Source: a plasmid. Taken from it: 64,000 bases of DNA. The notes beneath the pieces were generated by a model, which made no database searches, was not told the DNA's origin, and saw nothing but the letters and a program-made list of their open reading frames with translations. The stretch's first letter is position 1, and each line of letters begins with the position of its first letter. A program made the translations under genes and the position numbers. Positions 4,690 through 47,214 of the stretch are shown here, in pieces. Location of the stretch: NCBI RefSeq assembly GCF_053078305.1, contig NZ_CP166875.1, one strand, 5' to 3'.

Positions 4690-7410
4690 TTACATTCCAG
4701 GTGATGGTGGCTCCCATGTTTTCTCCTGCCGTAACGTATAATTATCATCATGGCTCTCCGATAAACGGGTCTGCTGTCTGATATATTCCCGGTAATACTG
4801 CTCACTGCGTTGACGGTGCAAATCCACGTCCGGACGAGTAATGGTGAAGTGTCCGTTTCCGGTTATTCCCGCTGCATTGTGCCAGGCCACCATTTCTGCA
4901 AACACATCATTAAACTGCTGGTATGAACCTTCCGGCTCAAAACCAAGCTTTCCGTTGCGGCTGAACAGAACTGGCGCAATTAAATCAAGCTTCTCTGCCA
5001 GTTCATTTCGGTCCGTGTGATGGTAGAACACAACCCGATCTCCGTAATCCGTACAGACATTTTTTCCTGTCCGCGTATCCCTGAAATGAACACTTCCATT
5101 TTTCTGAAGACGAGCTTCAAGTTTTGCAACATTATTAAAAAGTGGCGTTCCTCCGGGTTCGCAGAGTACGACACAACGATCAGCATTAGTTGTGCGTCTT
5201 TTATCCTTATTACGCGAGCGACGATCACGATAATCCCAGCCACGTAACTGCGATACTGCAGCCCTGTCTCCCTGAGCCGCCTGTTGTTCCACCCACTGCC
5301 GGTAGGACAAAGGATACCACTTACCCTCCGCAATCAGTGACAACCGCTCTTCCTTCACACTCTCCTTCAGCCTGATCAGCGCCTGCATACGCTGCACTTC
5401 CGCAATATGGTAATGCAGCTTACGCAATTGTGGATCCCGGAACTGCACACGGATATACGCCTTGCGCCGACGGCAGGCAGCATGAATTTCCCGTAACCGT
5501 TCTCCGTAACGTAAGTCGGGTTTACGCCAGTGCTCCTTCCATGCAAGATAACGCGCACGCAAATCTTCCCGCGCAGCTGCACGGGCTTCACGGCGCTCAC
5601 GACGAATCTCAGGATCGCGCCGGAAGCCTGGTTCCACTTCATCACTGGCAGCAAGTTCCGGATTGTAACGACATTCAGGCTTCACCCGTTCGAAAATATC
5701 TGCAGCCGCAATTTCAAATGGCCCGGCCTGAGGCTCGGCACGGGATAACGTCAAATCCGGGTGGATACTGCTGGCCTTCACCGGTGTCAGCTCATGATTA
5801 AACGCATCCACAATCACAAGACCATGATGCTGTTTCTGCAGCATAAGCCCTTTACGCGCAAACATCTCATGACATGCCTGCCAGCTGAAATCCCCGCCAG
5901 CTATCATCTCTTCAATCTGGCTCCTGCACTGAATAAGAGCGTATCCCCACAGACTTTCCTTATCGGAAAACAGTTCACGCTTTATAGCCCCCTGCGGACC
6001 TGTGCCCATCCTCATGCGATACCATTCGTAATCACTGACAGGCTGAGAGCCAATACTGTGTCCCCGGAATCGTTCTCCGGGAACGACCTGAGTAAAAATA
6101 TCCTTCGGTACAGGCTGCCATCCACCATCCAGATCCTGCATATAATCCAGCGTCATTAACGGCCACACACTGTCTGCACGTACTGGTGTCTGTTGTTTAT
6201 CAAATCCATCATGCAGTACCAGATGCCCGTGCTGAATCCCCATCCATAATCCCGCCTCTGCCAGAGTACGGTGTACAGCCAGGCAGCTTTTCAGTTCACC
6301 ATTGCGCGCCATTGCCGGTAAGCGTTCGGCAAAATGACGGCAGGCGTACTGTTTCAGACTCTCCGTTTCTGCCACTTTTTCCGGCCGGATATCAACGTTT
6401 ATGGCTTCCGGATCATAACGACCGGGTGTCCCCACCTGACTGAAAATATCTGTCGGTACAGGCTGATATTCCCCCAGTTTCCGCCCCAGTTTTTCAGCCG
6501 TCCATGACGGTCCGAACGAACTGAGTGCAACACCTTCCCGCGCTCTGTCCCAGCCATCCTTCACCACCAGTTCCCCTTCCTGCATCGTGATATACAGACC
6601 ATCGCTGGCCAGCCGTTTATGCAAAGATAACCAGTCCTGTGCAGGCTCTTCACGCAGCCCGGCAATCGACATCTGAGCAATATATTCCCTGAACGTCTGC
6701 TTTTTCCCGCGTCGCCAGGCATTACGGCGCTCACGTACCAGCGCTGTTTTGCGCACAATACGGTTGCCGGGTGCATGCACAAAGCAGCCATTATCCGGCG
6801 CGAATCCGTGCTTAAGTTCAAGTTCACGACATGCACGGCTGAGTTTTTCCTGGCTCCACGGAAGGCAATTGATATAGCCGGTTTCAGGGTGGACACGATT
6901 CACTGCAACATGTACATGCAGGTTATCCGTGTCTGTATGAACGGCTGCCACATACTGATGTTTTGACAGCTCAAGGGATTTCAGGGTGTGACGCACACAG
7001 TCAAAAAGCTGCTCAGAACGCGGACTTTCGTGCGCAGGCCAGGAGAGAATATAGTGAAAAACAGGATCTGTATCATCTTTGGAAAAATGAGCAAGGTCTG
7101 CTGCTTTCTGCATTTCTTCAGCCGCAGATTCAAGAGACAAACAGTTATGAAAGCAGGTCACACCATAGAAATTCACCCACTGACTGCCGTCTTTCATCAC
7201 ATCAATCAGGGAAACAAATTTTTCATTACGCAGACGTGTTGCATAATCAACAAGACGTCTGAAGCGATTCCGGTGCGGAACCTCACCTTTCACTTCCGTG
7301 TCTGGTCTGAGTTCATCTTCCGGCACATCATCCCGCACTGAGGTGTACGCAATCAGGTCTTCAAAAGAAGACTTTCCGTCGCGTCTTTTTTTCGGAATGA
7401 TGGCATTCAT
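4690..7410 (-). CDS. nikB: MOBP-type relaxase NikB
   Basis: 906 aa; N-terminal relaxase domain with HxDxxxxHxH-type motif (HTDTDNLHVHVAVNRVHPETG); directly downstream of nikA and oriT. Confidence 0.85.
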   Translation of the reverse strand: MNAIIPKKRRDGKSSFEDLIAYTSVRDDVPEDELRPDTEVKGEVPHRNRFRRLVDYATRLRNEKFVSLIDVMKDGSQWVNFYGVTCFHNCLSLESAAEEMQKAADLAHFSKDDTDPVFHYILSWPAHESPRSEQLFDCVRHTLKSLELSKHQYVAAVHTDTDNLHVHVAVNRVHPETGYINCLPWSQEKLSRACRELELKHGFAPDNGCFVHAPGNRIVRKTALVRERRNAWRRGKKQTFREYIAQMSIAGLREEPAQDWLSLHKRLASDGLYITMQEGELVVKDGWDRAREGVALSSFGPSWTAEKLGRKLGEYQPVPTDIFSQVGTPGRYDPEAINVDIRPEKVAETESLKQYACRHFAERLPAMARNGELKSCLAVHRTLAEAGLWMGIQHGHLVLHDGFDKQQTPVRADSVWPLMTLDYMQDLDGGWQPVPKDIFTQVVPGERFRGHSIGSQPVSDYEWYRMRMGTGPQGAIKRELFSDKESLWGYALIQCRSQIEEMIAGGDFSWQACHEMFARKGLMLQKQHHGLVIVDAFNHELTPVKASSIHPDLTLSRAEPQAGPFEIAAADIFERVKPECRYNPELAASDEVEPGFRRDPEIRRERREARAAAREDLRARYLAWKEHWRKPDLRYGERLREIHAACRRRKAYIRVQFRDPQLRKLHYHIAEVQRMQALIRLKESVKEERLSLIAEGKWYPLSYRQWVEQQAAQGDRAAVSQLRGWDYRDRRSRNKDKRRTTNADRCVVLCEPGGTPLFNNVAKLEARLQKNGSVHFRDTRTGKNVCTDYGDRVVFYHHTDRNELAEKLDLIAPVLFSRNGKLGFEPEGSYQQFNDVFAEMVAWHNAAGITGNGHFTITRPDVDLHRQRSEQYYREYIRQQTRLSESHDDNYTLRQEKTWEPPSPGM

Positions 7411-9284: not shown

Positions 9285-9645
9285 CGGGTCAGCCAGGTCA
9301 TTTCCCGGAGGAGCGAAGCTCCTTCTGCCGTCCGGGTCTTCGGGGATTTCCCCGCAGTGGACCTTTCCGATGGGGGCCCGTTTACCGCCTCACGGGACAG
9401 CTGTCCGGGGGCGGACGCAAAATTTTTAGCCGGGTTCATGGCTAAAAATTTTGTGGCCGGTGCATCTCACCCTGGACAGATGGAACGGGAGGGGGTTACG
9501 TCTGCCCCCTGGAAAGTCCACAGCGGGAAACAGGCCGCAGGGGTGGCGGCAGGAGGGAAGACTGCTGCGCCATCAGGCGCAGTTTCCTCACACACCGTCA
9601 GGTGTGCAGGGAGCGCAGGTCACGGCGCGACTGAAGAAAAACGAC
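9285..9645 (-). repeat. Repeat family A copy 1: GC-rich structured element (Frpo/ssi-like single-strand promoter candidate)
   Basis: Shares long near-identical blocks (ccgcagtggacctttccgatggg; cagctgtccgggggcggacgcaaaa; ggaaagtccacagcgggaaacaggccgcag) with copies at 12.7, 28.1 and 33.4 kb. Confidence 0.55.
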
Positions 9646-12689: not shown

Positions 12690-13210
12690 GGGCCGACCGA
12701 TTGCTCCCCCGGAGGGGCGAAAGCCCCTTCTGCCGTCCACTTCTTCGGGGTTTCTCCCCGCAGTGGACCTTTCCGATGGGGCAGCGACAGCCACGGCACG
12801 GGGCAGTTGTCCGGGGGCAGACGCAAAAGTTTTTGACGCTTGCGGCAAAAAGTTTTGTGGCTGGTACATCTCCCCCCTGGACGGCTGACACGTGTTGTGG
12901 CCGCTTCAGCCCCCGGAAAGTCCACAGCGGGAAACAGGCCGCAGGGGTGGCGGCGGAAGGGCAGACAACTGCGCCATCAGGCGCAGTTTCCTTACACACC
13001 GTCAGGTGTGCAGGGAGCGCAGGTCACGGCGCGACAGAGGCGGCGCGACCGGAACGGTCGCTGCAAGCCTGGTTTTTCAGACATCGGACCGTAGCGGCAG
13101 CCCGAAACCGCGCCAGCGGGTTCGGCGGAGACTGGCGGGTGCGCCAGCAGCTGCCTGTCGGAGTCGGGCCTGACGACCGGATGCCGCCAGGCAGCCGGGA
13201 GCCGAAGGTG
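12690..13210 (-). repeat. Repeat family A copy 2 (Frpo/ssi-like candidate)
   Basis: Shares conserved blocks with copies A1, A3, A4. Confidence 0.55.
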
Positions 13211-16479: not shown

Positions 16480-16850
16480 CCTTCTCTTACAGAGGGCACC
16501 GGGAGGGCCCCCCTGTGGTGCCCGTTCCCCGCTGCCTGTGGGCTGTTCACCGCGTCCGGTAACGGGTCAGGCCGACCGTGGAATACCGCAGCCGTCGTCT
16601 TTTTGACGGCAAGGTTATGCCGCGAAAGCGGCTTGAAGGGCGTTCATCAGAAAAGGGCGACGGGCTGGCGTACACTGTCACCGGTGCCAGCCGGGAGCGG
16701 TAAAAGCGCCCGTCCCGTGCCCGGCCGGACGCGGGACACTGACCACAGGCAGCGTTTATGCCGCGCCGCGTCAGCCGGCGCAGTAAAAAGAGGAGCACGG
16801 CGACATCCTTTGTCGGAAAAGAAACGGGCGGTTGCCCGCCCGTCTCCGTC
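16480..16850 (-). repeat. Repeat family C copy 1 (about 330 bp GC-rich structured element)
   Basis: Near-identical to 17795-18125. Confidence 0.6.
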
Positions 16851-17782: not shown

Positions 17783-17794
17783 GGGAATTCTCCT

Positions 17795-18125
17795 CACAGG
17801 AGCACCGGGAGGGAGCCCCTGTGGCGCCCGTTCCCCGCTGCCTGTGGGCTGTTCACCGCGTCCGGTAACGGGTCAGGCCGACCGTGGAATACCGCAGCCG
17901 TCGTCTGTTTGACGGCAAGGTTATGCCGCGAAAGCGGCTTGAAGGGCGTTCATCAGAAAAGGGCGACGGGCTGGCGTACACTATCACCGACGCCAGCCGG
18001 GAGCGGTAAAAGCGCCCGTCCCGTGCCCGCCGGACGCGGGACACTGACCACAGGCAGCGTTTATGCCGCGCCGCGTCAGCCGGCGCAGTAAAAAGAGGAG
18101 CACGGCGACATCCTTTTCCCCTGAA
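17795..18125 (-). repeat. Repeat family C copy 2
   Basis: Near-identical to 16480-16850. Confidence 0.6.
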
Positions 18126-18139
18126 CATCCGTCAGCCTT

Positions 18140-18380
18140 TCTCTGCGGCAAGATCAATCCTTAACAGAAAAAAAACCAACAAGCACCCACATAAAAAACA
18201 AAAAACCCAAGCAACACCCACACAAACAAAAAAAACACCCAGAAAACACCCAAAGACAAACAACAATAAAGTAATGAAACCCATAAAACACCCAAAAAAA
18301 GACAAAAAAGATTAAATAGCACTTGAACGCCACCAAAAAAATACTATTATGGGTATAGACACCCAAACGACACCCAAAAG
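18140..18380. other. A/C-rich iterated array (CACCC-type motifs), parC-like centromere candidate
   Basis: More than 10 spaced (A)CACCCA motifs in a very A/C-biased stretch directly upstream of the ParM-like gene. Confidence 0.5.
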
Positions 18381-18388
18381 AGGATTTT

Positions 18389-19360
18389 ATGATTAAGATA
18401 TTCTGTGATGATGGTTCTACAGCGGTTAAGCTGGCATGGTTTGAAAACGGGGAACTAAAAACCCTCATTAGTCACAATTCTTTCAAGGAAGGCTGGAACA
18501 CATCAGGATTTGGCAGTGAGAAAACTTATAATTACTTAGTCGATGGAGAGAAATATGCGTTTGATACACATAACCCATCAGCAATAGTCACAACCAATAT
18601 TGAGTTTCAATATAGTGTAGAAAATCGTCTCGCTGTACATCACGCACTACTACAAACAGGAATGGAGCCTGGGGATGTAGAGCTTTGGGTTACATTACCT
18701 GTATCTGAATATTTCACTACAGATATGCAAGAGAATTCGGATAACATAAGAAAAAAAATAGAAAACCTGAAAAAAGAAATTACACTGAATAAAGGCAGCG
18801 TATTTTCAATCAAGAAAGTTCATGTATTACCCGAGTCTCTACCTGCAGCGTTGACCTCTCTCGAAGAGGATAAAGTCAGTGATCTTGAAACGTCCCTTGT
18901 CGTCGATCTTGGTGGAACAACTCTTGATTGTGGCGCTATAGCTGGCAGATATAAAAATGTAACACAAGTATCCGGAGAACCTGGTCTTGGCGTAACTCTG
19001 GTAACAACGGCGACAATGAATGCCCTGAAACAGGCAGGAACGCATACCAGCTACTATATTGCAGATCAACTGGTTAGAAACAGAAATGCTGATGATTTAT
19101 TCGAAATTGTTGTTAATGACAGCAGTAAAATAGATGATGTGAAATCAGTAATTGAAAACAGTATTACAAGACTTTCAGACAGAGTTATAAATCATTTACA
19201 CTCGTACAAAGGGATAAATCGTATATACATGACTGGTGGTGGTGCGGAACTAATCTACCCTGCAATAAAAAAAGCATTCCCCTTATTAAAGGATAAAGTA
19301 AAAATTTTACCAGATGCGCAATTAGCCCTTGTTATTTCTATTGCTGAAATAAATCGATAA
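18389..19360 (+). CDS. parM: Actin-like segregation ATPase (ParM/StbA family)
   Basis: 323 aa; actin-fold phosphate motifs (DDGST; DLGGTTLD; MTGGGAE); RBS aagagga upstream. Confidence 0.75.
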   Translation: MIKIFCDDGSTAVKLAWFENGELKTLISHNSFKEGWNTSGFGSEKTYNYLVDGEKYAFDTHNPSAIVTTNIEFQYSVENRLAVHHALLQTGMEPGDVELWVTLPVSEYFTTDMQENSDNIRKKIENLKKEITLNKGSVFSIKKVHVLPESLPAALTSLEEDKVSDLETSLVVDLGGTTLDCGAIAGRYKNVTQVSGEPGLGVTLVTTATMNALKQAGTHTSYYIADQLVRNRNADDLFEIVVNDSSKIDDVKSVIENSITRLSDRVINHLHSYKGINRIYMTGGGAELIYPAIKKAFPLLKDKVKILPDAQLALVISIAEINR

Positions 19361-19923
19361 TGAGGTACAGGATGAGTGATGAACGTCGTAAATTATGGCT
19401 ATACTTATATCCTGATGAGCCACAGCAAAAATCCGCAATAGAAACCATTGAAGAAATACCTCAAAGACAACGTTCTGATTTCTTCAGAGATAGTATTGTT
19501 GCAGGTATTGCATTATCAAAACTCGATAAACGATTACCTGCACTTGTATCTATGTTACTACAGCAAGATAGTAATATAGATACTCTTGTACGTATTTTAA
19601 AAATACTATTCCCCAAGCTTGATATTGACTCAACGGAAGATAAATCTACACTCTGTGCCGTTGCTTGGCAAAAAAGATGTCGGGATGAATTACAACAAGG
19701 CACACCATGGTCTGCCTGGTTTGCGATTAGTGAGGATGAATATAATCATCATCTTAATCATCCAGAATCAAACAGTCAGGTACGTGCATTATGGGCTTAT
19801 GATGAAAACGAGCAGAAAAAGGATATACAGGATAAAGAGAGAACGCCCTTTCCGGAGGCCAACACCAATACAAGTTCAGAAACATTGAGTAATGCTAAAA
19901 AATTATTTGGTAATTCAAATTAA
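19360..19923 (+). CDS. Partition adaptor (ParR/StbB-like)
   Basis: Translationally coupled to the ParM-like gene; assignment by position only. Confidence 0.45.
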   Translation: MRYRMSDERRKLWLYLYPDEPQQKSAIETIEEIPQRQRSDFFRDSIVAGIALSKLDKRLPALVSMLLQQDSNIDTLVRILKILFPKLDIDSTEDKSTLCAVAWQKRCRDELQQGTPWSAWFAISEDEYNHHLNHPESNSQVRALWAYDENEQKKDIQDKERTPFPEANTNTSSETLSNAKKLFGNSN

Positions 19924-20033
19924 TTATTCAAAGAAAATCCCGGTCGAAGGGCCGGGATGTTTACACGTTAACCACCCTGCAATTCTGCCACTCCTGATGC
20001 GGAATAACAGGACAGGACCGGGAACAGTCAGGC

Positions 20034-22183: not shown

Positions 22184-22635
22184 TAATACCCCGACAAGAT
22201 TAAATTCTGGTTAACGATATCATTATACAGCGAATAATATAATTATGGTTCACGTATTATTATCCGTGACTCTTTCCTGGTAACTCCCGCATAATAACTT
22301 CACTTTTCCAGTATTCCAGAAGATGATGTTTTTTCCTCGATAATAAAAATGTGCCAATATGGAAATAAGAAATCGGATTTTTTATCAGCATACGCAAATT
22401 TTCAGATAACAATGAATACAGATGTATTTTATATACACAGATAAAACCGCGCAACAGACATAAATATGACAGTAGCATGAAAAAGCAGAGAGAGACAGGG
22501 TGATACAGAAAAGTAACTATTTTTTTAGCTATAGTATTATTGGTTTTACCTATTTTCGTGATTGTGTTTCTGTATATTGGGGGTTCGCGCCCATTTCCTC
22601 TAAAAGTCTCACCTTGCTTAGGTAATTAATTGAAT

Positions 22636-23217
22636 TTATTTATAAAACGTTGCAATTTTAGCATCATTTTTTATTGTTCTTTTTAACCTGAAGTACGTCG
22701 ATCGAGAGATACCTGTTTTTTCTGTCACACTGCCCAGAGATTCTCCCTGTGATATAAGCTCCAACGCTGTAGGCGTTCGTGGATGCTTCTTCCTGCCAAA
22801 TTTTACGCCTGCGGCAAGTGCCGCTATTCTTCCGTCGTTTGTCCGCTCCAGAATACGCTCACGTTCCGCTTCAGCTACAGCAGCAAGGATTTGGATAACC
22901 ATTTTGCCCATTGTCCCTTCTGTACTGAGACCGTTCTCCAGGAACCGGATGGCGATCCCCTTTTTGTAACAGCTATCAACCACACGAATCATGTCAGCAG
23001 TGTTACGCCCCAGTCGGTCCATTTTTGTACAGATGATTACGTCGTCTTTCTCTGCACGGGCCAACAACCGCTGTAGTCCTTCCCGTTCATCAGTTGCGCC
23101 AGTCATCATATCCGTAAAAATACGATCTTCCCGTACCCCGGCATTTTTTAGCTCCGAGATTTGATGTGTTAGCTTCTGATGACTGGTTGATACCCGTGCA
23201 TACCCCAATAACGCCAT
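22636..23217 (-). CDS. tnpR: Serine recombinase / resolvase
   Basis: N-terminal catalytic serine motif (GYARVSTSHQ), C-terminal HTH; divergent from the transposase gene. Confidence 0.85.
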   Translation of the reverse strand: MALLGYARVSTSHQKLTHQISELKNAGVREDRIFTDMMTGATDEREGLQRLLARAEKDDVIICTKMDRLGRNTADMIRVVDSCYKKGIAIRFLENGLSTEGTMGKMVIQILAAVAEAERERILERTNDGRIAALAAGVKFGRKKHPRTPTALELISQGESLGSVTEKTGISRSTYFRLKRTIKNDAKIATFYK

Positions 23218-23373
23218 TTTTAGTCTCACTTATCGTTTTTGACACTGCATGGTATCATAATGTACAAAATACGATTTTTGAAACCTGCTTTTATGCTGTT
23301 TTAGACAGGTATCAGATATCTTAATATTTGATACTAGCCATATTTAACAAATATTTAGCATTTTGGTAAATGT

Positions 23374-26300
23374 ATGCAGAAGTACAAGAAAAGAATTAGT
23401 ATATTAACAAAAAGTGAAATAAATGAATTATATCAAGTCCCCTCTTTTAATCCTGTTGAAAGGGATGAGTTTTTTTCGCTGGATATCAGCCTTAAAAGAG
23501 AAATTGATAAAATAATAAATATAGAAAGCAGGGTGTATCTGATATTAATAACAGGGTATTTCAGATATAAACCTGTGATTCCTGAATTTACATTAAAAGA
23601 CGTAAAAAGGGATGTGAAATATATTATCCAGACATATTATAAAAACGAAAGTACTAATCTCAATTTAAACATACCTAAAAGTACAAAGTACCGCCTTGTT
23701 AAACGAATGCTTTCTACTCTAGGATTTGAACAACTCACCCCATCTATAAAAAATGAGTTAAGTGAACGTCTGAATGATGTTGCTACTATATGTATGGAAC
23801 CAAAATATATTTTTGATGAATTACTTGCTTTTTTAGGACAGCGGCGTATAGCTCTTCCTGGATACAGTACTGTCCAGAACCTCGTTTCAGATGCTTTAAA
23901 CTTTGAAAGGAAAAGGACAATTAATATTTTGTCAAAGAGAATTTATCCTGCCACTGCACAAAAGATTACATCCATCATCCATGATGATGGAATATTAAAT
24001 TCCATCAGGGGATATAATTATAGCACGAGAGACTTCTCAGCATCAGAAATAGAAAATGAATTAAGAACTCACAATGTGATAAGTAGTATTTACTATGAAA
24101 TAAAAGATATAATTAATTCATTAGGTATATCCCAGGGAAACATGGAGTACTATGCAACTATCGTAAAACACAGTACAACATTCAGACTTAAGCGACACCC
24201 TAAATGGCAAGGAATACTTTATTTGTGCTGCTACTTGTACTTCAGATACAGAGAGATAAATGATAAAATAATCACAGCCTTCAGATATTTAGTAAAAAAA
24301 CATAAAGACGCTTCAGTTTTGTTTGCAAAAGCTCGGGCAACAGAGGAAATAGATCTAATAAATAAAAAGCTTAAGTTTGCGAGTAAAATATTTAACTTCT
24401 TCGTTGATAGTAACATTGAAGACAGCATCCCTTTTGGATATGTTCGTGAAAAGGTTTTTTCACTTATATCGAAAGATGATATGCATCTTGTGAGTGAATT
24501 TTTTGACAAAAATAAAATCGATGTAATTGAATATCAATGGCAGTATATTGACAGCCATCACCTTAAGATCGCCAATTCAATCCGAAAGCTTTTTCTGGCT
24601 ATAGATATAGTATATGACAACGAGAAGTCTGTTATTGGCCAGCAAATTACTGCTGCCAAGGATGATCTCAGAGGAAAAGGAAAGCTGGATGCTAAGGATC
24701 TGAGGGTAATTCATCCATCCGAGAAAAATTACATTGTAAAAGAAGGAGAAATTAACACTCAACGATTCGAATTTCATATGTACAGCAGGGTATCTAACCA
24801 TCTGGAAAACGGTGTCTTTTATGCTGCGGAGAGTGAACAAAACAAGAGACTGGAAGATGATCTCATAGAACGAAGTTACTGGCATAAGAATAAATCGATT
24901 TTGATAGAGAAAACAGGCCTTGAACGACTTATCACACCAATAACGCAGACTCTTAATGAGCTGGAGAATACCTTTAGCGATAAACTGGCTCGTATAACCA
25001 TTGGAATAAACTCAGATGCTAATGAGTTTGTGAAAAAACAACCACACTCCAACAGATTACAGTGGAGTCTGGCCAGTAAAAAATGGAAGACCAGCATCGA
25101 TAATCCGATTTACAATCAGATAAAAAATATCGGAATAGTTGACGTAATGAAGTATGTAAACAATGAGACGAATTTTTTGTCTGTGTTTAATGCCATATCA
25201 TCCAGGAAAAATAATCTTGAAGCTGACTATAATGACCTTCTTGCCTGTATATTTGGTAATGGCGCAAATTATGGTGTTCACAGAATGGCATCTGCATCAG
25301 ACCGTAGTATTGGAATACTACGTGATGTGAATGACAAATTCATTCGTCCAGAAACAACAGGAATGGCCAACACAGTAATATCTGATGCAATTGCAAATCT
25401 TTCTGTATATAAATACTGGACGATAAATGAAGATTCTCCATTTGGAAGTGTTGATGGGCAGAAGCACACTTGCAGAATAAATACATTTAAAGCCCGTTAT
25501 TCTGCCAAGTATTTCAGAAAGGGGAAAGGGGTTTCTGCGATGACACTGGTATCTAATCATGTGCCATTATCAACTGTGGTAATTTCTCCAAATGAATATG
25601 AAGGTCATTTTGCATTTGACTTGTTATATAACAACACCAGTGAAATACAACCAAAGTCATTAGCGACTGACAATCATGGTATAAACAACGTTAATTTTGC
25701 GATTCTTGACATTTTTGGCTATCAGTTTTCACCACGTTATGCAAAATTCAAGAAAATATTTAATGAATTATTTGATGTTATACTGGAGAGTGATAAACTC
25801 ATTATAAAACTTAAAAAACAATTTAACTTTAAGCTCATTGAACATGAATGGGAAAACATCCAACATATTATTTGTTCTTTAAGCAGAAAAACAACCATTC
25901 AAAGTACGGTTGTTAAGAAGTTATCTAATACAAAGCGTAGCAACAAGACATTAGCAGCACTTCGGGAGTATGACCGAGTTATAAAATGCATATATGTCCT
26001 GGATTATGCTGACAATAAAACCTTAAGGCAATTTGTGCAACAAGCACTGAACAGAGGTGAAGCTTATCATCAACTAAGAAGAGCAATAGCATCAGTAAAT
26101 GGAAATCAATTTCGCGGTGGTAATGACTACCAAATAGATCAATGGAACGACTGTGCGAGGTTAATAGCTAATTGTGTAATCTATTATAATTCAGCAATAT
26201 TATCCAGGCTGGTCGAGAAATTTGAAAAAGAAAATAATAAAAAAGCGATAGATGTTCTGGCTAACTTATCCCCAGTAGCATGGAGACACATTCTCCTTGG

Positions 26301-26412
26301 AGGGAATTATTCTTTTGAAGATCAAGTTGCGATCACAAATTTGGACAGTCTTTTGGAGGGAGTAGACCCACTAAGTGATATCGGAGATATTGAGTCCGAA
26401 TATGACGGTTAA
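23374..26412 (+). CDS. tnpA: Tn3-family DDE transposase
   Basis: 1012 aa, size and organisation typical of Tn3-family TnpA; AT-rich codon usage unlike the backbone. Confidence 0.8.
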   Translation: MQKYKKRISILTKSEINELYQVPSFNPVERDEFFSLDISLKREIDKIINIESRVYLILITGYFRYKPVIPEFTLKDVKRDVKYIIQTYYKNESTNLNLNIPKSTKYRLVKRMLSTLGFEQLTPSIKNELSERLNDVATICMEPKYIFDELLAFLGQRRIALPGYSTVQNLVSDALNFERKRTINILSKRIYPATAQKITSIIHDDGILNSIRGYNYSTRDFSASEIENELRTHNVISSIYYEIKDIINSLGISQGNMEYYATIVKHSTTFRLKRHPKWQGILYLCCYLYFRYREINDKIITAFRYLVKKHKDASVLFAKARATEEIDLINKKLKFASKIFNFFVDSNIEDSIPFGYVREKVFSLISKDDMHLVSEFFDKNKIDVIEYQWQYIDSHHLKIANSIRKLFLAIDIVYDNEKSVIGQQITAAKDDLRGKGKLDAKDLRVIHPSEKNYIVKEGEINTQRFEFHMYSRVSNHLENGVFYAAESEQNKRLEDDLIERSYWHKNKSILIEKTGLERLITPITQTLNELENTFSDKLARITIGINSDANEFVKKQPHSNRLQWSLASKKWKTSIDNPIYNQIKNIGIVDVMKYVNNETNFLSVFNAISSRKNNLEADYNDLLACIFGNGANYGVHRMASASDRSIGILRDVNDKFIRPETTGMANTVISDAIANLSVYKYWTINEDSPFGSVDGQKHTCRINTFKARYSAKYFRKGKGVSAMTLVSNHVPLSTVVISPNEYEGHFAFDLLYNNTSEIQPKSLATDNHGINNVNFAILDIFGYQFSPRYAKFKKIFNELFDVILESDKLIIKLKKQFNFKLIEHEWENIQHIICSLSRKTTIQSTVVKKLSNTKRSNKTLAALREYDRVIKCIYVLDYADNKTLRQFVQQALNRGEAYHQLRRAIASVNGNQFRGGNDYQIDQWNDCARLIANCVIYYNSAILSRLVEKFEKENNKKAIDVLANLSPVAWRHILLGGNYSFEDQVAITNLDSLLEGVDPLSDIGDIESEYDG

Positions 26413-26478
26413 CAACATGATAAATAATGGTTTTTATGCTAAGAGTGAGACTTTTGGAGGAAATGGGCGCAGAACCCC

Positions 26479-28856: not shown

Positions 28857-29015
28857 CTACTTACCGGATTCGTAAGCCATGAAAGCCGCCACCTCCCTGT
28901 ATCCGTCTCTGTAACGAATCTCGCACAGCGATTTTCGTGTCAGATAAGTAAATATCAACAGTGTGAGACACACAATCAACACACACCAGACAAGAGAGCT
29001 GCGTGGTAGTTTCAT
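28857..29015 (-). CDS. hok: Hok/Gef-family type I toxin (FlmA/Hok-like)
   Basis: 52 aa [52 protein letters not shown]; adjacent to psiA. Confidence 0.85.
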
Positions 29016-29289
29016 GGCCTTCTTCTCCTTGCGCAAAGCGCGGTAAGAGGCTATCCTGATGTTGTCAGACATATGGGATGCCTCGTGGGTTAATGAAAAA
29101 TTAACTACGGGGCTATCTTCTTTCTGCCACACAACACGGTAACAAACCACCTTCACGTCATGAGGCAGAAAGCCTCAAGCGCCGGGCACATCATAGCCCA
29201 TATACCTGCACGCTGACCACACTCACTTTTCCTGAAAATAACCCGCTCATTCAGGCTGTTTACGGGTAATCTGTGTGATTGTTGCCGCA

Positions 29290-33394: not shown

Positions 33395-33850
33395 TATGCC
33401 CCTTCAGAGGAGCGAAAGCTCCTCCTGCCGTCCACTTCTTCGGGGTTTCTCCCCGCAGTGGACCTTTCCGATGGGGGCCCGTTTACCGCCTCACGGGACA
33501 GCTGTCCGGGGGCGGACGCAAAATTTTTTGCCGGGTTCATGGCTAAAAATTTTGTGGCCGGTATATCTTCCCCTGGACTGATGGAACGGGAGGTGGTTAC
33601 GTCTGCCCCCCGGAAAGTCCACAGCGGGAAACAGGCCGCAGAGGTGGCGGCAGAAGAGGAGCGCAGGCCACGGCGCGACAAAGGCGGCGCGACCGTTCCG
33701 GTCGCTGCAAGCCCGGGTTTTCACGCATCGGACCGTAGCGACAGCCCGAAACCGCGCCAGCGGGTTCGGCGGAGACTGGCGGGTGCGCCAGCAGTTGCCT
33801 GTCGGAGTCGGGCCTGACGACCGGATGCCGCCAGGCAGCCGGGAGCCGAA
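33395..33850 (-). repeat. Repeat family A copy 4 (upstream of ssb)
   Basis: Nearly identical to copy A1 over about 250 bp. Confidence 0.6.
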
Positions 33851-35335: not shown

Positions 35336-35746
35336 GCACATTATATTCAGCGCCACATCCGGTAGCCTGCGATATAACACAGTTATCCTGTCAGTAAGAG
35401 CAGGTATGATGAATACACGGAGATTAAAAATATAATCTCCGTCACATGTTACCCCCGGAAACCGGTAACGCCGTCACGGGAAAGACGTGACAGAAAAAGC
35501 AGCCTCCGTTACTCCAGGTATCAGAAGGCTGAATAATGCATGAGACTTTCTTTCTTATGTGTCTGGTCAGGCTGGCTGACCAGCGTTTTTAGTAACACAT
35601 AGCCATATGTGTATTAAGCCACCTCATCTTATTTTGTTGAATTGATCACAATTCAACGGTTTATTTTTGGCGTGATGTGTGAGCCGTTATTCATCCCGGC
35701 ATGGAATTCATGCAATAACGAAAAGTAATCAGTGACGGAGAGTAAA

Positions 35747-36694: not shown

Positions 36695-36973
36695 CGCCTT
36701 CGCGTTGCTCAGTTGTCCAACCCCGGGGACGGGAAAAAGCAAGTTTTCCCCGCCCCCGGCGTTTCTGTAGTGAAAAGCGGGAAATGGAGGGAATGGTCAG
36801 TAACAGGGAATGTGGTATTATCGCGGCGGGTGTCTGAGCCTTTCTGGTTCAGGCAAGACGCAGGTACTAGAAATGCGAAGACCCCACTTGTTAATCCATT
36901 AACTCGTGAGGCCTGCATGAAGTACTTGAACACTACTGATTGTAGCCTCTTCCTTGCAGAGAGGTCAAAGTTT

Positions 36974-37123
36974 ATGACGAAATATGCCCTTATCGGGTTG
37001 CTCGCCGTGTGCGCCACGGTGTTGTGTTTTTCACTGATATTCAGGGAACGGTTATGTGAGCTGAATATTCACAGGGGAAATACAGTGGTGCAGGTAACTC
37101 TGGCCTACGAAGCACGGAAGTAA
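36974..37123 (+). CDS. srnB: Hok/Gef-family type I toxin (SrnB/PndA-like)
   Basis: 49 aa MTKYALIGLLAVCATVLCFSLIFRERLCELNIHRGNTVVQVTLAYEARK; leader ORF starts at about 36917. Confidence 0.75.
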   Translation: MTKYALIGLLAVCATVLCFSLIFRERLCELNIHRGNTVVQVTLAYEARK

Positions 37124-37754: not shown

Positions 37755-37850
37755 GTTCTGATGTGGATGTACAGGAGCCAGAAAAGTGAAAACCCCGATA
37801 ATCTTCTTTAACTTTGGCGAGTGAGAAAGATTACCGGGGCCATCTAAAAA
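37755..37850 (-). ncRNA. copA: CopA-type antisense RNA (replication control), inferred
   Basis: Imperfect long stem-loop (ccccgataatctt...aagattaccgggg) in the repA leader between copB and tap; position as in IncFII replicons. Confidence 0.4.
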
Positions 37851-37890
37851 CCGTATAGCCAACAATTCAGCTATGCGGGGAGTATAGTTA

Positions 37891-42729: not shown

Positions 42730-43068
42730 ATGCGGTTTTTTTTAGGCGGCAGGTGTTACACGGCTGAAAACCTTGAAAAGGATTATCTGGCTGAAGTTGC
42801 TAATTACAGTGACGACCGCTGGGAAGCACCCCAACGCGCCGCACGTCTGGCAGCTGCCGTAAAGCGTTACAAGACATCAGAAATGCTGCGCTTTATTTTT
42901 GCTACCACTGCCTACGATCCCGATCCAGATTTAACCCCGCTGACTGTGAGACGTTTGTGCAAGGCATTGTTCGGCAGAACAGGAAGCCAGTGGCTGGTTG
43001 TTGAAGTTTTTGGGGAGAAGGGGCGTCAGCACCGCAGCGCGGACAGCAATCCGGAGATGGTGGAAAAA
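42730..43068 (+). pseudogene. Hypothetical gene (about 160 aa when rejoined), 5' part, interrupted by Tn3-family copy 2
   Basis: ATG with RBS agggagg; frame continues across the transposon into 46969-47214. Confidence 0.5.
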
Positions 43069-43125
43069 GGGGGTTCGCGCCCATTTCCTCTAAAAGTCTC
43101 ACCTTGCTTAGGTAATTAATTGAAT

Positions 43126-43707
43126 TTATTTATAAAACGTTGCAATTTTAGCATCATTTTTTATTGTTCTTTTTAACCTGAAGTACGTCGATCGAGAGAT
43201 ACCTGTTTTTTCTGTCACACTGCCCAGAGATTCTCCCTGTGATATAAGCTCCAACGCTGTAGGCGTTCGTGGATGCTTCTTCCTGCCAAATTTTACGCCT
43301 GCGGCAAGTGCCGCTATTCTTCCGTCGTTTGTCCGCTCCAGAATACGCTCACGTTCCGCTTCAGCTACAGCAGCAAGGATTTGGATAACCATTTTGCCCA
43401 TTGTCCCTTCTGTACTGAGACCGTTCTCCAGGAACCGGATGGCGATCCCCTTTTTGTAACAGCTATCAACCACACGAATCATGTCAGCAGTGTTACGCCC
43501 CAGTCGGTCCATTTTTGTACAGATGATTACGTCGTCTTTCTCTGCACGGGCCAACAACCGCTGTAGTCCTTCCCGTTCATCAGTTGCGCCAGTCATCATA
43601 TCCGTAAAAATACGATCTTCCCGTACCCCGGCATTTTTTAGCTCCGAGATTTGATGTGTTAGCTTCTGATGACTGGTTGATACCCGTGCATACCCCAATA
43701 ACGCCAT
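43126..43707 (-). CDS. tnpR: Serine recombinase / resolvase (copy 2)
   Basis: Identical to 22636-23217. Confidence 0.85.
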   Translation of the reverse strand: MALLGYARVSTSHQKLTHQISELKNAGVREDRIFTDMMTGATDEREGLQRLLARAEKDDVIICTKMDRLGRNTADMIRVVDSCYKKGIAIRFLENGLSTEGTMGKMVIQILAAVAEAERERILERTNDGRIAALAAGVKFGRKKHPRTPTALELISQGESLGSVTEKTGISRSTYFRLKRTIKNDAKIATFYK

Positions 43708-43863
43708 TTTTAGTCTCACTTATCGTTTTTGACACTGCATGGTATCATAATGTACAAAATACGATTTTTGAAACCTGCTTTTATGCTGTTTTAGACAGGT
43801 ATCAGATATCTTAATATTTGATACTAGCCATATTTAACAAATATTTAGCATTTTGGTAAATGT

Positions 43864-46800
43864 ATGCAGAAGTACAAGAAAAGAATTAGTATATTAACAA
43901 AAAGTGAAATAAATGAATTATATCAAGTCCCCTCTTTTAATCCTGTTGAAAGGGATGAGTTTTTTTCGCTGGATATCAGCCTTAAAAGAGAAATTGATAA
44001 AATAATAAATATAGAAAGCAGGGTGTATCTGATATTAATAACAGGGTATTTCAGATATAAACCTGTGATTCCTGAATTTACATTAAAAGACGTAAAAAGG
44101 GATGTGAAATATATTATCCAGACATATTATAAAAACGAAAGTACTAATCTCAATTTAAACATACCTAAAAGTACAAAGTACCGCCTTGTTAAACGAATGC
44201 TTTCTACTCTAGGATTTGAACAACTCACCCCATCTATAAAAAATGAGTTAAGTGAACGTCTGAATGATGTTGCTACTATATGTATGGAACCAAAATATAT
44301 TTTTGATGAATTACTTGCTTTTTTAGGACAGCGGCGTATAGCTCTTCCTGGATACAGTACTGTCCAGAACCTCGTTTCAGATGCTTTAAACTTTGAAAGG
44401 AAAAGGACAATTAATATTTTGTCAAAGAGAATTTATCCTGCCACTGCACAAAAGATTACATCCATCATCCATGATGATGGAATATTAAATTCCATCAGGG
44501 GATATAATTATAGCACGAGAGACTTCTCAGCATCAGAAATAGAAAATGAATTAAGAACTCACAATGTGATAAGTAGTATTTACTATGAAATAAAAGATAT
44601 AATTAATTCATTAGGTATATCCCAGGGAAACATGGAGTACTATGCAACTATCGTAAAACACAGTACAACATTCAGACTTAAGCGACACCCTAAATGGCAA
44701 GGAATACTTTATTTGTGCTGCTACTTGTACTTCAGATACAGAGAGATAAATGATAAAATAATCACAGCCTTCAGATATTTAGTAAAAAAACATAAAGACG
44801 CTTCAGTTTTGTTTGCAAAAGCTCGGGCAACAGAGGAAATAGATCTAATAAATAAAAAGCTTAAGTTTGCGAGTAAAATATTTAACTTCTTCGTTGATAG
44901 TAACATTGAAGACAGCATCCCTTTTGGATATGTTCGTGAAAAGGTTTTTTCACTTATATCGAAAGATGATATGCATCTTGTGAGTGAATTTTTTGACAAA
45001 AATAAAATCGATGTAATTGAATATCAATGGCAGTATATTGACAGCCATCACCTTAAGATCGCCAATTCAATCCGAAAGCTTTTTCTGGCTATAGATATAG
45101 TATATGACAACGAGAAGTCTGTTATTGGCCAGCAAATTACTGCTGCCAAGGATGATCTCAGAGGAAAAGGAAAGCTGGATGCTAAGGATCTGAGGGTAAT
45201 TCATCCATCCGAGAAAAATTACATTGTAAAAGAAGGAGAAATTAACACTCAACGATTCGAATTTCATATGTACAGCAGGGTATCTAACCATCTGGAAAAC
45301 GGTGTCTTTTATGCTGCGGAGAGTGAACAAAACAAGAGACTGGAAGATGATCTCATAGAACGAAGTTACTGGCATAAGAATAAATCGATTTTGATAGAGA
45401 AAACAGGCCTTGAACGACTTATCACACCAATAACGCAGACTCTTAATGAGCTGGAGAATACCTTTAGCGATAAACTGGCTCGTATAACCATTGGAATAAA
45501 CTCAGATGCTAATGAGTTTGTGAAAAAACAACCACACTCCAACAGATTACAGTGGAGTCTGGCCAGTAAAAAATGGAAGACCAGCATCGATAATCCGATT
45601 TACAATCAGATAAAAAATATCGGAATAGTTGACGTAATGAAGTATGTAAACAATGAGACGAATTTTTTGTCTGTGTTTAATGCCATATCATCCAGGAAAA
45701 ATAATCTTGAAGCTGACTATAATGACCTTCTTGCCTGTATATTTGGTAATGGCGCAAATTATGGTGTTCACAGAATGGCATCTGCATCAGACCGTAGTAT
45801 TGGAATACTACGTGATGTGAATGACAAATTCATTCGTCCAGAAACAACAGGAATGGCCAACACAGTAATATCTGATGCAATTGCAAATCTTTCTGTATAT
45901 AAATACTGGACGATAAATGAAGATTCTCCATTTGGAAGTGTTGATGGGCAGAAGCACACTTGCAGAATAAATACATTTAAAGCCCGTTATTCTGCCAAGT
46001 ATTTCAGAAAGGGGAAAGGGGTTTCTGCGATGACACTGGTATCTAATCATGTGCCATTATCAACTGTGGTAATTTCTCCAAATGAATATGAAGGTCATTT
46101 TGCATTTGACTTGTTATATAACAACACCAGTGAAATACAACCAAAGTCATTAGCGACTGACAATCATGGTATAAACAACGTTAATTTTGCGATTCTTGAC
46201 ATTTTTGGCTATCAGTTTTCACCACGTTATGCAAAATTCAAGAAAATATTTAATGAATTATTTGATGTTATACTGGAGAGTGATAAACTCATTATAAAAC
46301 TTAAAAAACAATTTAACTTTAAGCTCATTGAACATGAATGGGAAAACATCCAACATATTATTTGTTCTTTAAGCAGAAAAACAACCATTCAAAGTACGGT
46401 TGTTAAGAAGTTATCTAATACAAAGCGTAGCAACAAGACATTAGCAGCACTTCGGGAGTATGACCGAGTTATAAAATGCATATATGTCCTGGATTATGCT
46501 GACAATAAAACCTTAAGGCAATTTGTGCAACAAGCACTGAACAGAGGTGAAGCTTATCATCAACTAAGAAGAGCAATAGCATCAGTAAATGGAAATCAAT
46601 TTCGCGGTGGTAATGACTACCAAATAGATCAATGGAACGACTGTGCGAGGTTAATAGCTAATTGTGTAATCTATTATAATTCAGCAATATTATCCAGGCT
46701 GGTCGAGAAATTTGAAAAAGAAAATAATAAAAAAGCGATAGATGTTCTGGCTAACTTATCCCCAGTAGCATGGAGACACATTCTCCTTGGAGGGAATTAT

Positions 46801-46902
46801 TCTTTTGAAGATCAAGTTGCGATCACAAATTTGGACAGTCTTTTGGAGGGAGTAGACCCACTAAGTGATATCGGAGATATTGAGTCCGAATATGACGGTT
46901 AA
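43864..46902 (+). CDS. tnpA: Tn3-family DDE transposase (copy 2)
   Basis: Identical to 23374-26412. Confidence 0.8.
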   Translation: MQKYKKRISILTKSEINELYQVPSFNPVERDEFFSLDISLKREIDKIINIESRVYLILITGYFRYKPVIPEFTLKDVKRDVKYIIQTYYKNESTNLNLNIPKSTKYRLVKRMLSTLGFEQLTPSIKNELSERLNDVATICMEPKYIFDELLAFLGQRRIALPGYSTVQNLVSDALNFERKRTINILSKRIYPATAQKITSIIHDDGILNSIRGYNYSTRDFSASEIENELRTHNVISSIYYEIKDIINSLGISQGNMEYYATIVKHSTTFRLKRHPKWQGILYLCCYLYFRYREINDKIITAFRYLVKKHKDASVLFAKARATEEIDLINKKLKFASKIFNFFVDSNIEDSIPFGYVREKVFSLISKDDMHLVSEFFDKNKIDVIEYQWQYIDSHHLKIANSIRKLFLAIDIVYDNEKSVIGQQITAAKDDLRGKGKLDAKDLRVIHPSEKNYIVKEGEINTQRFEFHMYSRVSNHLENGVFYAAESEQNKRLEDDLIERSYWHKNKSILIEKTGLERLITPITQTLNELENTFSDKLARITIGINSDANEFVKKQPHSNRLQWSLASKKWKTSIDNPIYNQIKNIGIVDVMKYVNNETNFLSVFNAISSRKNNLEADYNDLLACIFGNGANYGVHRMASASDRSIGILRDVNDKFIRPETTGMANTVISDAIANLSVYKYWTINEDSPFGSVDGQKHTCRINTFKARYSAKYFRKGKGVSAMTLVSNHVPLSTVVISPNEYEGHFAFDLLYNNTSEIQPKSLATDNHGINNVNFAILDIFGYQFSPRYAKFKKIFNELFDVILESDKLIIKLKKQFNFKLIEHEWENIQHIICSLSRKTTIQSTVVKKLSNTKRSNKTLAALREYDRVIKCIYVLDYADNKTLRQFVQQALNRGEAYHQLRRAIASVNGNQFRGGNDYQIDQWNDCARLIANCVIYYNSAILSRLVEKFEKENNKKAIDVLANLSPVAWRHILLGGNYSFEDQVAITNLDSLLEGVDPLSDIGDIESEYDG

Positions 46903-46968
46903 CAACATGATAAATAATGGTTTTTATGCTAAGAGTGAGACTTTTGGAGGAAATGGGCGCAGAACCCC

Positions 46969-47214
46969 ACTGTGAGACGTTTGTGCAAGGCATTGTTCGG
47001 CAGAACCGGAAGCCAGTGGCTGGTTGTTGAAGTTTTTGGGGAGAAGGGGCGTCAGCACCGCAGCGCGGACAGCAATCCGGAGATGGTGGAAAAAATGGCT
47101 GCCAGATATCGTCATGCCGCCGAACTACACTGGTCCGCAACGCTGGCAGAAATTGAACGGGTAAAGCGGCTTTATCAGACGAAAATTAAGAAATCCAAAA
47201 AAGAAGTGGGTTGA
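46969..47214 (+). pseudogene. 3' part of the interrupted hypothetical gene
   Basis: Repeats residues LTVRRLCKALF...EMVEK of the 5' part, then continues to a stop. Confidence 0.5.

Follow-up and report, generated by a model that had tools for sequence, protein, structure and literature searches.

A candidate R1-type parC centromere and operator upstream of parMR on an IncK2/Z I-complex plasmid

Introduction

The centromere parC of plasmids R1 and NR1, which belongs to the type II (ParMRC) partition systems, is traced to Dam & Gerdes 1994, as cited in PMC5016525. The 159-bp parC of R1 is strongly curved DNA in which five 11-bp iterons stand on either side of a 39-bp promoter core, each iteron binding one ParR dimer (PMC2241845). 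An oligonucleotide carrying iterons 1 and 2, AAACAAAACCCAAAAACAACCC, was gel-shifted by R1 ParR, two iterons being the minimum for binding, and a parC-like sequence at the R1 oriT was termed ‘A/C rich’ (PMC4949242). In the pSK41 system, ParR forms a super-helix on which the DNA wraps, and each 10-bp half repeat takes up one dimer (PMC5016525).

Partition in the I-complex has been addressed in a transposon study of resistance plasmids, according to which about 15% of 460 plasmids have no known parAB and further partition systems remain; a ParB-like gene of the ‘parB_2’ type was not required for maintenance (PMC10286972). Our literature search found no described parC on IncK/IncZ plasmids.

Here, we analyzed a 64-kb stretch of plasmid DNA (hereafter, the window), in which a sequence-only reading had pointed to an A/C-biased repeat array upstream of a parM-like gene and proposed that it is a centromere-like site. 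From the features of the sequence, we consider it very probable that this block is the parC of a type II (ParMRC) cassette on an IncK2/Z I-complex plasmid, acting both as the cis-acting centromere of this cassette and as its autoregulatory operator. The array is an uncharacterized member of the R1-type parC family and not a novel kind of element.

Results

Composition of the block upstream of parM

The block at 18140-18380 contains 131 A, 64 C, 22 G and 24 T, amounting to 81% A+C, and it ranks first in A+C among all 241-nt segments across the 64 kb (0.813; window mean 0.516, sd 0.045). Its core, at 18165-18310, reaches 90% A+C (92 A, 40 C, 9 G and 5 T). The earlier description of the block as almost devoid of G and T is accurate for approximately 18165-18310; it does not apply to 18311-18380, where the predicted promoter resides. 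The interval 18160-18388 is intergenic and lies directly upstream of a 323-aa ORF, which we identify below as parM. The coordinates of all features are given in Table 1.

Table 1 Features of the parMR cassette, its upstream array and its borders (positions in the window)
Feature	Position	Strand	Remarks
GC-rich backbone element, ~330 bp	17788-18116	-	Left boundary of the cassette, outside parC
parC-like array, whole	18170-18379	+	Nine direct ACCCA, one inverted, two degenerate ACCAA; promoter embedded
Upstream block of 11-bp units	18170-18297	+	Cores at 18175 (ACCAA), 18185, 18205, 18216, 18237, 18248, 18279, 18290
Predicted sigma-70 promoter of parMR	18323-18350	+	-35 TTGAAC 18323-18328, 16-nt spacer, -10 TATTAT 18345-18350
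Downstream block, presumed operator	18350-18379		Inverted TGGGT 18350-18354; direct cores at 18361, 18372
Shine-Dalgarno GAGGA of parM	18380-18384	+	Read from the sequence
parM, actin-like segregation ATPase, 323 aa	18389-19360	+	Pfam and PDB matches
parR/stbB adaptor, 183 aa	19372-19923	+	PF10784, 2JD3; alternative upstream ATG at 19360
GC-rich hairpin, candidate terminator	19937-19958		Lies where parR and a UvrD-like helicase gene converge

The sequence-only reading had called this composition unusual. A/C richness is, in fact, typical of R1-family parC, reaching 77% A+C in the parC of an R1-type locus on an IncF plasmid (hereafter, L007). Since R1-type parC on the IncF plasmid is likewise A/C-rich and likewise built from 11-bp units with an ACCCA core, we regard the composition of the block as a family trait rather than an oddity. 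The bias is so extreme because an asymmetric unit made only of A and C is directly repeated, and decayed units and A-tract spacers add to it.

Repeat units and their helical phasing

The array had been described as holding more than ten copies of ACACCCA. We found six exact copies of this heptamer in the block, seven of CACCCA, and ten of ACCCA, nine direct and one inverted (TGGGT). The feature itself is thus real, and the original observation was only partly confirmed because its motif count was overstated. We rejected exact ACACCCA as the repeat unit: across the whole window it occurs 8 times against 8.6 expected, that is, with no enrichment.

The informative core is ACCCA, the top non-homopolymer 5-mer of the block, and its nine direct copies in 229 nt compare with approximately 0.12 predicted from the whole-window rate. 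Mononucleotide shuffles of the block contained 1.1 copies on average, and none of 20,000 reached nine; under a local first-order Markov (dinucleotide) model the mean was 2.3, and nine copies were reached in 8 of 20,000 cases. Two degenerate units, ACCAA at 18175 and 18332, lie in phase with the exact ones.

Successive direct cores are spaced by 20, 11, 21, 11, 31, 11, 71 and 11 bp. Their best period is 10.4 bp, with a Rayleigh R of 0.94 that none of 5,000 random placements matched. The repeated unit is 11 bp long, with the consensus AAAACACCCAA; 11 bp is also the commonest spacing, and periods of both 11 and 31 bp were detected in the array. The units are arranged mainly as 11-bp doublets, separated from one another by 31, 32 and 42 bp, and the base that precedes the core is usually C (7 of the 9 direct cores read CACCCA). 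When a matrix of the unit was scanned over both strands of the 64 kb, the seven best matches all fell within 18170-18379, and no comparable cluster of units was found elsewhere in the window.

We also estimated DNA curvature with two wedge models. By these estimates, only 0.03-0.5% of the 160-bp segments of the window would be as curved as the array; for R1-type parC, our positive control, the models predict more curvature than for the array, and the predicted curvature of the homologous Escherichia marmotae and Arsenophonus arrays is weaker (0.79-0.86, against a mean of 0.95).

A predicted promoter embedded in the array

The predicted parMR promoter, which agrees with the consensus at 9 of 12 positions, separates the last three units from the upstream ones, and the second of the degenerate ACCAA units (18332-18336) lies inside its spacer. 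The inverted core shares the last base of the -10 element, and an inverted repeat was detected there. The array ends at 18379, 10 nt before the parM start codon. Because the likely transcription start and the 5' leader fall within the downstream block, we regard this block as the presumed operator. The -35 element and the -10 region beside GGGT are kept in the E. marmotae homologue despite the divergence of the array.

Such an arrangement raises the question of whether the array could be an operator and promoter only, with ParR binding the units, the A-tracts acting as UP-like or bending elements, and the true centromere located elsewhere or partition lost altogether. Three units do overlap the -10 element and the start region, A-rich DNA upstream of a -35 element is typical of UP elements, and parM is frameshifted in one carrier plasmid. 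We nevertheless judge this reading unlikely, because eight units lie far upstream of the promoter, 30-150 bp from the -35 element, which exceeds the needs of repression. The window contains no second cluster of units, its parM and parR are both intact, as they also are in 10 of the 12 records that match in complete E. coli genomes, and every characterized type II system uses the same repeats as both operator and centromere (PMC2241845, PMC5016525).

The parM and parR genes

The gene beside the array had been read as ParM-like, and homology searches bear this out: its product matches StbA_N (1.6e-63) and ParM_N (1.5e-42) in Pfam and R1 ParM in PDB (4.4e-76), and it is 42% identical to R1-type ParM. 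The start of the adaptor gene had been placed at 19360, which is the less likely choice; the start at 19372, which follows a GAGG Shine-Dalgarno sequence and coincides with the RefSeq start, is most likely the correct one.

The adaptor is a ParR protein, matching PF10784 with an E-value of 2.8e-19 and 69 bits (cutoff 25). Residues 8-81 match the sequence of pB171 ParR (2JD3, 1e-12), the predicted N-domain aligns to the same structure with a Foldseek probability of 1.0 and a TM of 0.70, and this domain is 40% identical to that of R1-type ParR. Behind an N-terminal ribbon-helix-helix, the protein has an additional folded module in its middle part (residues ~94-143), and its C-terminal tail, SNAKKLF, aligns to the R1 ParR C-terminal tail NAMKLIN. 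The module, which falls outside the PF10784 family definition, carries the invariant pattern VAWQ.R..L..W..W...VR.L and is modelled with confidence as a small sheet and a helix (pLDDT 87). Searches with it returned no Pfam match and no significant PDB neighbour; Pfam likewise returned nothing for the C-terminal 98 residues of ParR, and NCBIfam nothing meaningful for the protein.

Comparison with characterized partition sites

The IncF locus L007, whose parM product is near-identical to the crystallized R1 ParM (708 bits), allowed a direct comparison with R1-type parC. Upstream of its parM, L007 reads aaACCCAaaaacaACCCAaaacacACCACAataaACCCAaaaacaACACA, a promoter, and then ACCCAtttaaaACCCAaagcaACCCCaaaagcacACCAaaaaaacACCA, forming an array of 5+5 units of 11 bp around the promoter on the same strand as the array described here, with unit cores ACCCA/ACCAC/ACACA...ACCCA/ACCCC/ACCA. 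Kinship to the R1 iteron (AAACCCAAAAAC type) is evident in the ACCCA core, the strand and the A/C-rich flanks, which are common to our array, L007 and the published oligonucleotide of iterons 1 and 2.

The two systems resemble each other in several respects. In both, the array lies upstream of parM-parR with units on both sides of a promoter, here a predicted one; the units are direct, 11 bp long and strongly A/C-rich, and the parM coding strand carries their ACCCA core. Both encode a ribbon-helix-helix ParR of the PF10784 family with a similar tail, and curvature is known for R1 and predicted here. Overall, the centromere-like role that the sequence-only reading had proposed is supported by the location of the array in front of the parMR operon, by its phased 11-bp units on either side of a predicted promoter and by this comparison.

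There are also clear differences. In place of R1’s 5+5 contiguous units over 159 bp, the array has approximately eight upstream units, a promoter region of ~52 bp and three further units, spanning ~210 bp in total. Its doublets are 31-42 bp apart, unlike the contiguous R1 iterons, and one of the last three units is inverted. Because the R1 layout (five units, 39 bp and five units, all contiguous) is not found here, we consider the array a relative of R1 parC and not a copy of it. Before the core, C is the preferred base here and A (AACCCA) in R1, and the 183-aa ParR with its extra folded module contrasts with the 114 aa of R1 ParR.

The residues of the ParR strand predicted to face the DNA differ from those of R1 at all four positions (K/T, W/A, Y/K and Y/N). 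This comparison aligned the N-terminus of ParR, encoded at 19372-19410 of the window, with 5777-5815 of L007; the ACCCA core is nonetheless common to both. The sharing of this core could stem in part from shape readout or from common descent of the DNA.

Other partition sites are less similar. The par1 system of pB171 provides the closest solved structure to the ParR N-domain (2JD3) and has the same parM-parR operon order. Using the 2JD3 sequence fragment, we found a pB171-type locus (100% match to the fragment); it carries two ATTGAGTATT repeats upstream, with no ACCCA array and no A/C bias, and, unlike the locus studied here, it adjoins a divergent gene for a ParA-type ATPase. The parC of Staphylococcus plasmid pSK41 is likewise a type II tandem-repeat centromere upstream of its operon. 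It differs in its continuous 20-bp repeats of unrelated sequence, in its Gram-positive host and in having a promoter that does not lie between two blocks. The parH site of TP228 (ParF/ParG, type Ib) shares a ribbon-helix-helix adaptor, short degenerate boxes, AT-rich spacers and a double role as operator (PMC3130281). Its motor is ParA-type, its boxes are tetramers and its adaptor belongs to another protein family; the analogy is architectural only.

Conservation and co-variation in relatives

Plasmids of E. marmotae and of sheep E. coli carry the cassette at 89% nucleotide identity. In these plasmids, the array is far more diverged than the genes, with indels of 2, 11 and 67 nt that are frame-breaking in the E. 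marmotae homologue. The arrays of these relatives nevertheless keep the cores, the ACACCCAnAAAACACCCA doublet, the -35 element and the stretch TATGGGTATAGAyACCCAA...ACACCC. In another E. coli plasmid (NCCP 13963; positions 381-719, aligned with 18100-18395 of the window), the array is longer by 41 bp, comprising a doublet plus spacer, and the helical phase is kept. The same plasmid has TTGGT in place of the TGGGT adjacent to the -10 element, and its annotation marks parM as frameshifted.

The indels bear on a further possibility, that the locus encodes a protein on the minus strand. The sequence-only reading had noted a spurious ORF there, and we recovered three, at 18154-18468 (104 aa), 18132-18305 (57 aa) and 18161-18322 (53 aa). 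Their presence is all that favours a protein, whose probability we consider negligible: the translations are low-complexity peptides rich in F, V, L, G and C, and also W, the E. marmotae indels break all of the frames, RefSeq annotates no gene over the array, and the 104-aa ORF extends antisense into the 5' end of parM.

The subfamily of long ParR proteins is small, with 19 clusters in a search of 5.8 billion proteins and 34 full-length PLSDB records. Its hosts are chiefly Arsenophonus, and also include Xenorhabdus and a 5-kb Hoaglandella plasmid. All relatives at 53-84% ParR identity possess ACCCA/TGGGT arrays together with an identical N-terminal strand, RRKLWLYLYP. Even at 53-57% identity (in loci from Arsenophonus, Xenorhabdus and metagenomes), ACCCA or TGGGT is still the most repeated 5-mer in front of parM. 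The orientation of the array is reversed in some relatives, one of which (L017) has 78% G+T on the parM coding strand. Across the loci of the family, 11 bp is the commonest spacing between units of the same orientation (13 of 41), and nearly all other spacings are multiples of ~10.4.

The strand RRKLWLYLYP is found in every long-form ParR locus with an ACCCA array, and ParRs with the strand TKKYYFYLN are accompanied by ACACC/GGTGT motifs instead. Across relatives, the motif tracks the ParR recognition strand, which also supports the reading of the array as a centromere. Three more distant relatives (L004, L010 and L011) showed no clear common motif and were left out of the evidence.

These patterns argue against the view that the block is neutral low-complexity DNA, either a slippage-prone A/C tract or the decayed remains of an older R1-type parC from which selection has gone. 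Such a view could account for the fast divergence and indels of the spacers, for the different array lengths of near-identical plasmids and for the degenerate units (ACCAA, ACAAA). We consider it very unlikely, as the cores and their 10.4-bp register are retained while the spacers change, the core recurs upstream of parM down to 53% ParR identity, even in inverted arrays, the motif co-varies with the ParR strand, and the enrichment of the core holds under null models of local composition.

Plasmid context

Positions 17800-20000 of the window match the E. coli IncK2/Z (I-complex) plasmid pL2-87 at 100%. Among 5,426 complete E. coli genomes, the cassette was present in 11, always on plasmids. 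The annotation of the reference plasmid lists no ParA and only a leading-region ParB-like gene, of the ‘parB_2’ type, and the motif KGGxGK[ST] is absent from all frames of the window. This plasmid type thus appears to rely on ParMRC in place of parAB.

The GC-rich element to the left of the cassette, with which the conserved backbone ends, is a 96% direct copy of 16482-16811, across the DUF1281 gene, and recurs at ~98% in over 5,000 IncF and IncI plasmids. It also precedes the array of L007. The parMR cassette (18389-19923) has ~38% GC within a backbone of 50-70% GC. This low GC content, together with the fact that the nearest non-Escherichia relatives of ParR are found in the low-GC Morganellaceae (Arsenophonus and Xenorhabdus), suggests that the cassette took over the backbone site of an R1-type cassette.

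Several additional observations concern the surroundings of the array. A segment of ~47-67 bp, ccttttcccctgaacatccgtcagcctttctctgcggcaagatcaatccttaacag (18113-18159), separates the GC-rich element from the array and is missing in both the E. marmotae homologue and the IncF locus. RefSeq places a 91-aa hypothetical ORF (17853-18128, minus strand) inside the GC-rich element, and further GC-rich repeats of ~330 bp are located at 9304-9631, 12708-13035 and 33407-33660. In the closest reference plasmid, pL2-87 (5630-7354 of its matching locus), a group II intron (ltrA) separates the DUF1281 gene from the GC-rich element; this intron is missing from the window (~17797-17800).

When folded as single-stranded DNA, the minus strand of the GC-rich element (17800-18125) forms a long hairpin (dG -87 kcal/mol, z -3.3), and we presume that it resembles the single-strand promoter or initiation (Frpo/ssi-type) elements of conjugative leading regions. 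The array might accordingly be suspected of being a single-strand or structural leading-region element itself, either a G-quadruplex on its G/T-rich strand or part of the adjoining hairpin. Nine TGGGT runs on the minus strand, the fold of the neighbouring element and the proximity of leading-region genes are in line with this idea. It is highly improbable all the same: no canonical G-quadruplex is present, as there are no four GGG runs with loops of up to 12 nt, a strand of nearly pure A and C is unable to pair with itself, and the array accompanies parMR in non-conjugative and unrelated plasmids, including the 5-kb Hoaglandella plasmid, with no tie to a leading region.

A whole-window scan at the Rfam gathering thresholds returned no match within 17800-20000. 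Elsewhere, at 37784-37874 (-), 36828-36984 (+), 29013-29184 (-) and 35428-35570 (-), it matched ordinary plasmid maintenance RNAs, namely a CopA-like antisense RNA of the replicon, two sok antitoxin RNAs and AS-pc02. The window also contains what is probably a duplicated mobile element, a perfect 3,900-bp direct repeat (22579-26478 and 43069-46968, 100% identity) with a 1,012-aa ORF (23374-26412); its second copy is flanked by near-identical 126-bp segments (42943-43068 and 46969-47094).

Discussion

Our analysis assigns a predicted centromere to a ParMRC cassette, left unannotated by RefSeq. In the mechanism that we propose for this parC, ParR dimers would bind one ACCCA core after another by inserting the strand RRKLWLYLYP of their N-terminal ribbon-helix-helix into the major groove at each. 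Cores lying on one helical face, in a 10.4-bp register and mostly as 11-bp doublets, would suit cooperative binding by dimers of dimers, a packing with precedent in the pSK41 and pB171 crystals (PMC5016525). A-tracts phased with the CCC cores may pre-bend the DNA and thereby favour its wrapping on a helical ParR scaffold. The SNAKKLF tails of ParR would then capture the ends of ParM filaments, and the filaments would push sister plasmids apart, through which the cassette could stabilize the plasmid. Occupation of the three units over the -10 element and the transcription start would, in turn, repress parMR.

For R1, an A/C-rich iteron array in front of parM is textbook knowledge, and the finding will not surprise the wider field. 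The locus differs from R1 in its spaced doublets, its 8+3 asymmetry with one inverted unit, and its long ParR with the extra folded module. The interest of the locus rests on this unstudied long ParR and on its relevance to the maintenance of I-complex plasmids, as the cassette is a candidate partition system for some of the ~15% of these plasmids that have no known parAB. The ACCCA core shared with R1 parC also raises the question of partition cross-talk between IncF and I-complex plasmids that reside in the same cell.

More speculatively, and with considerable doubt on our part, the long ParR with its extra module, the spaced 11-bp doublets and an array that flips its orientation between relatives may build a partition complex unlike the R1 ring. 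The core shared with R1 might then entail either cross-reaction with the ParR of IncF plasmids, and with it a hidden partition incompatibility between the I-complex and IncF, or insulation provided by the flanking bases and the module. If functional, the cassette would also count among the partition systems ‘missing’ from the ~15% of I-complex plasmids with no known parAB.
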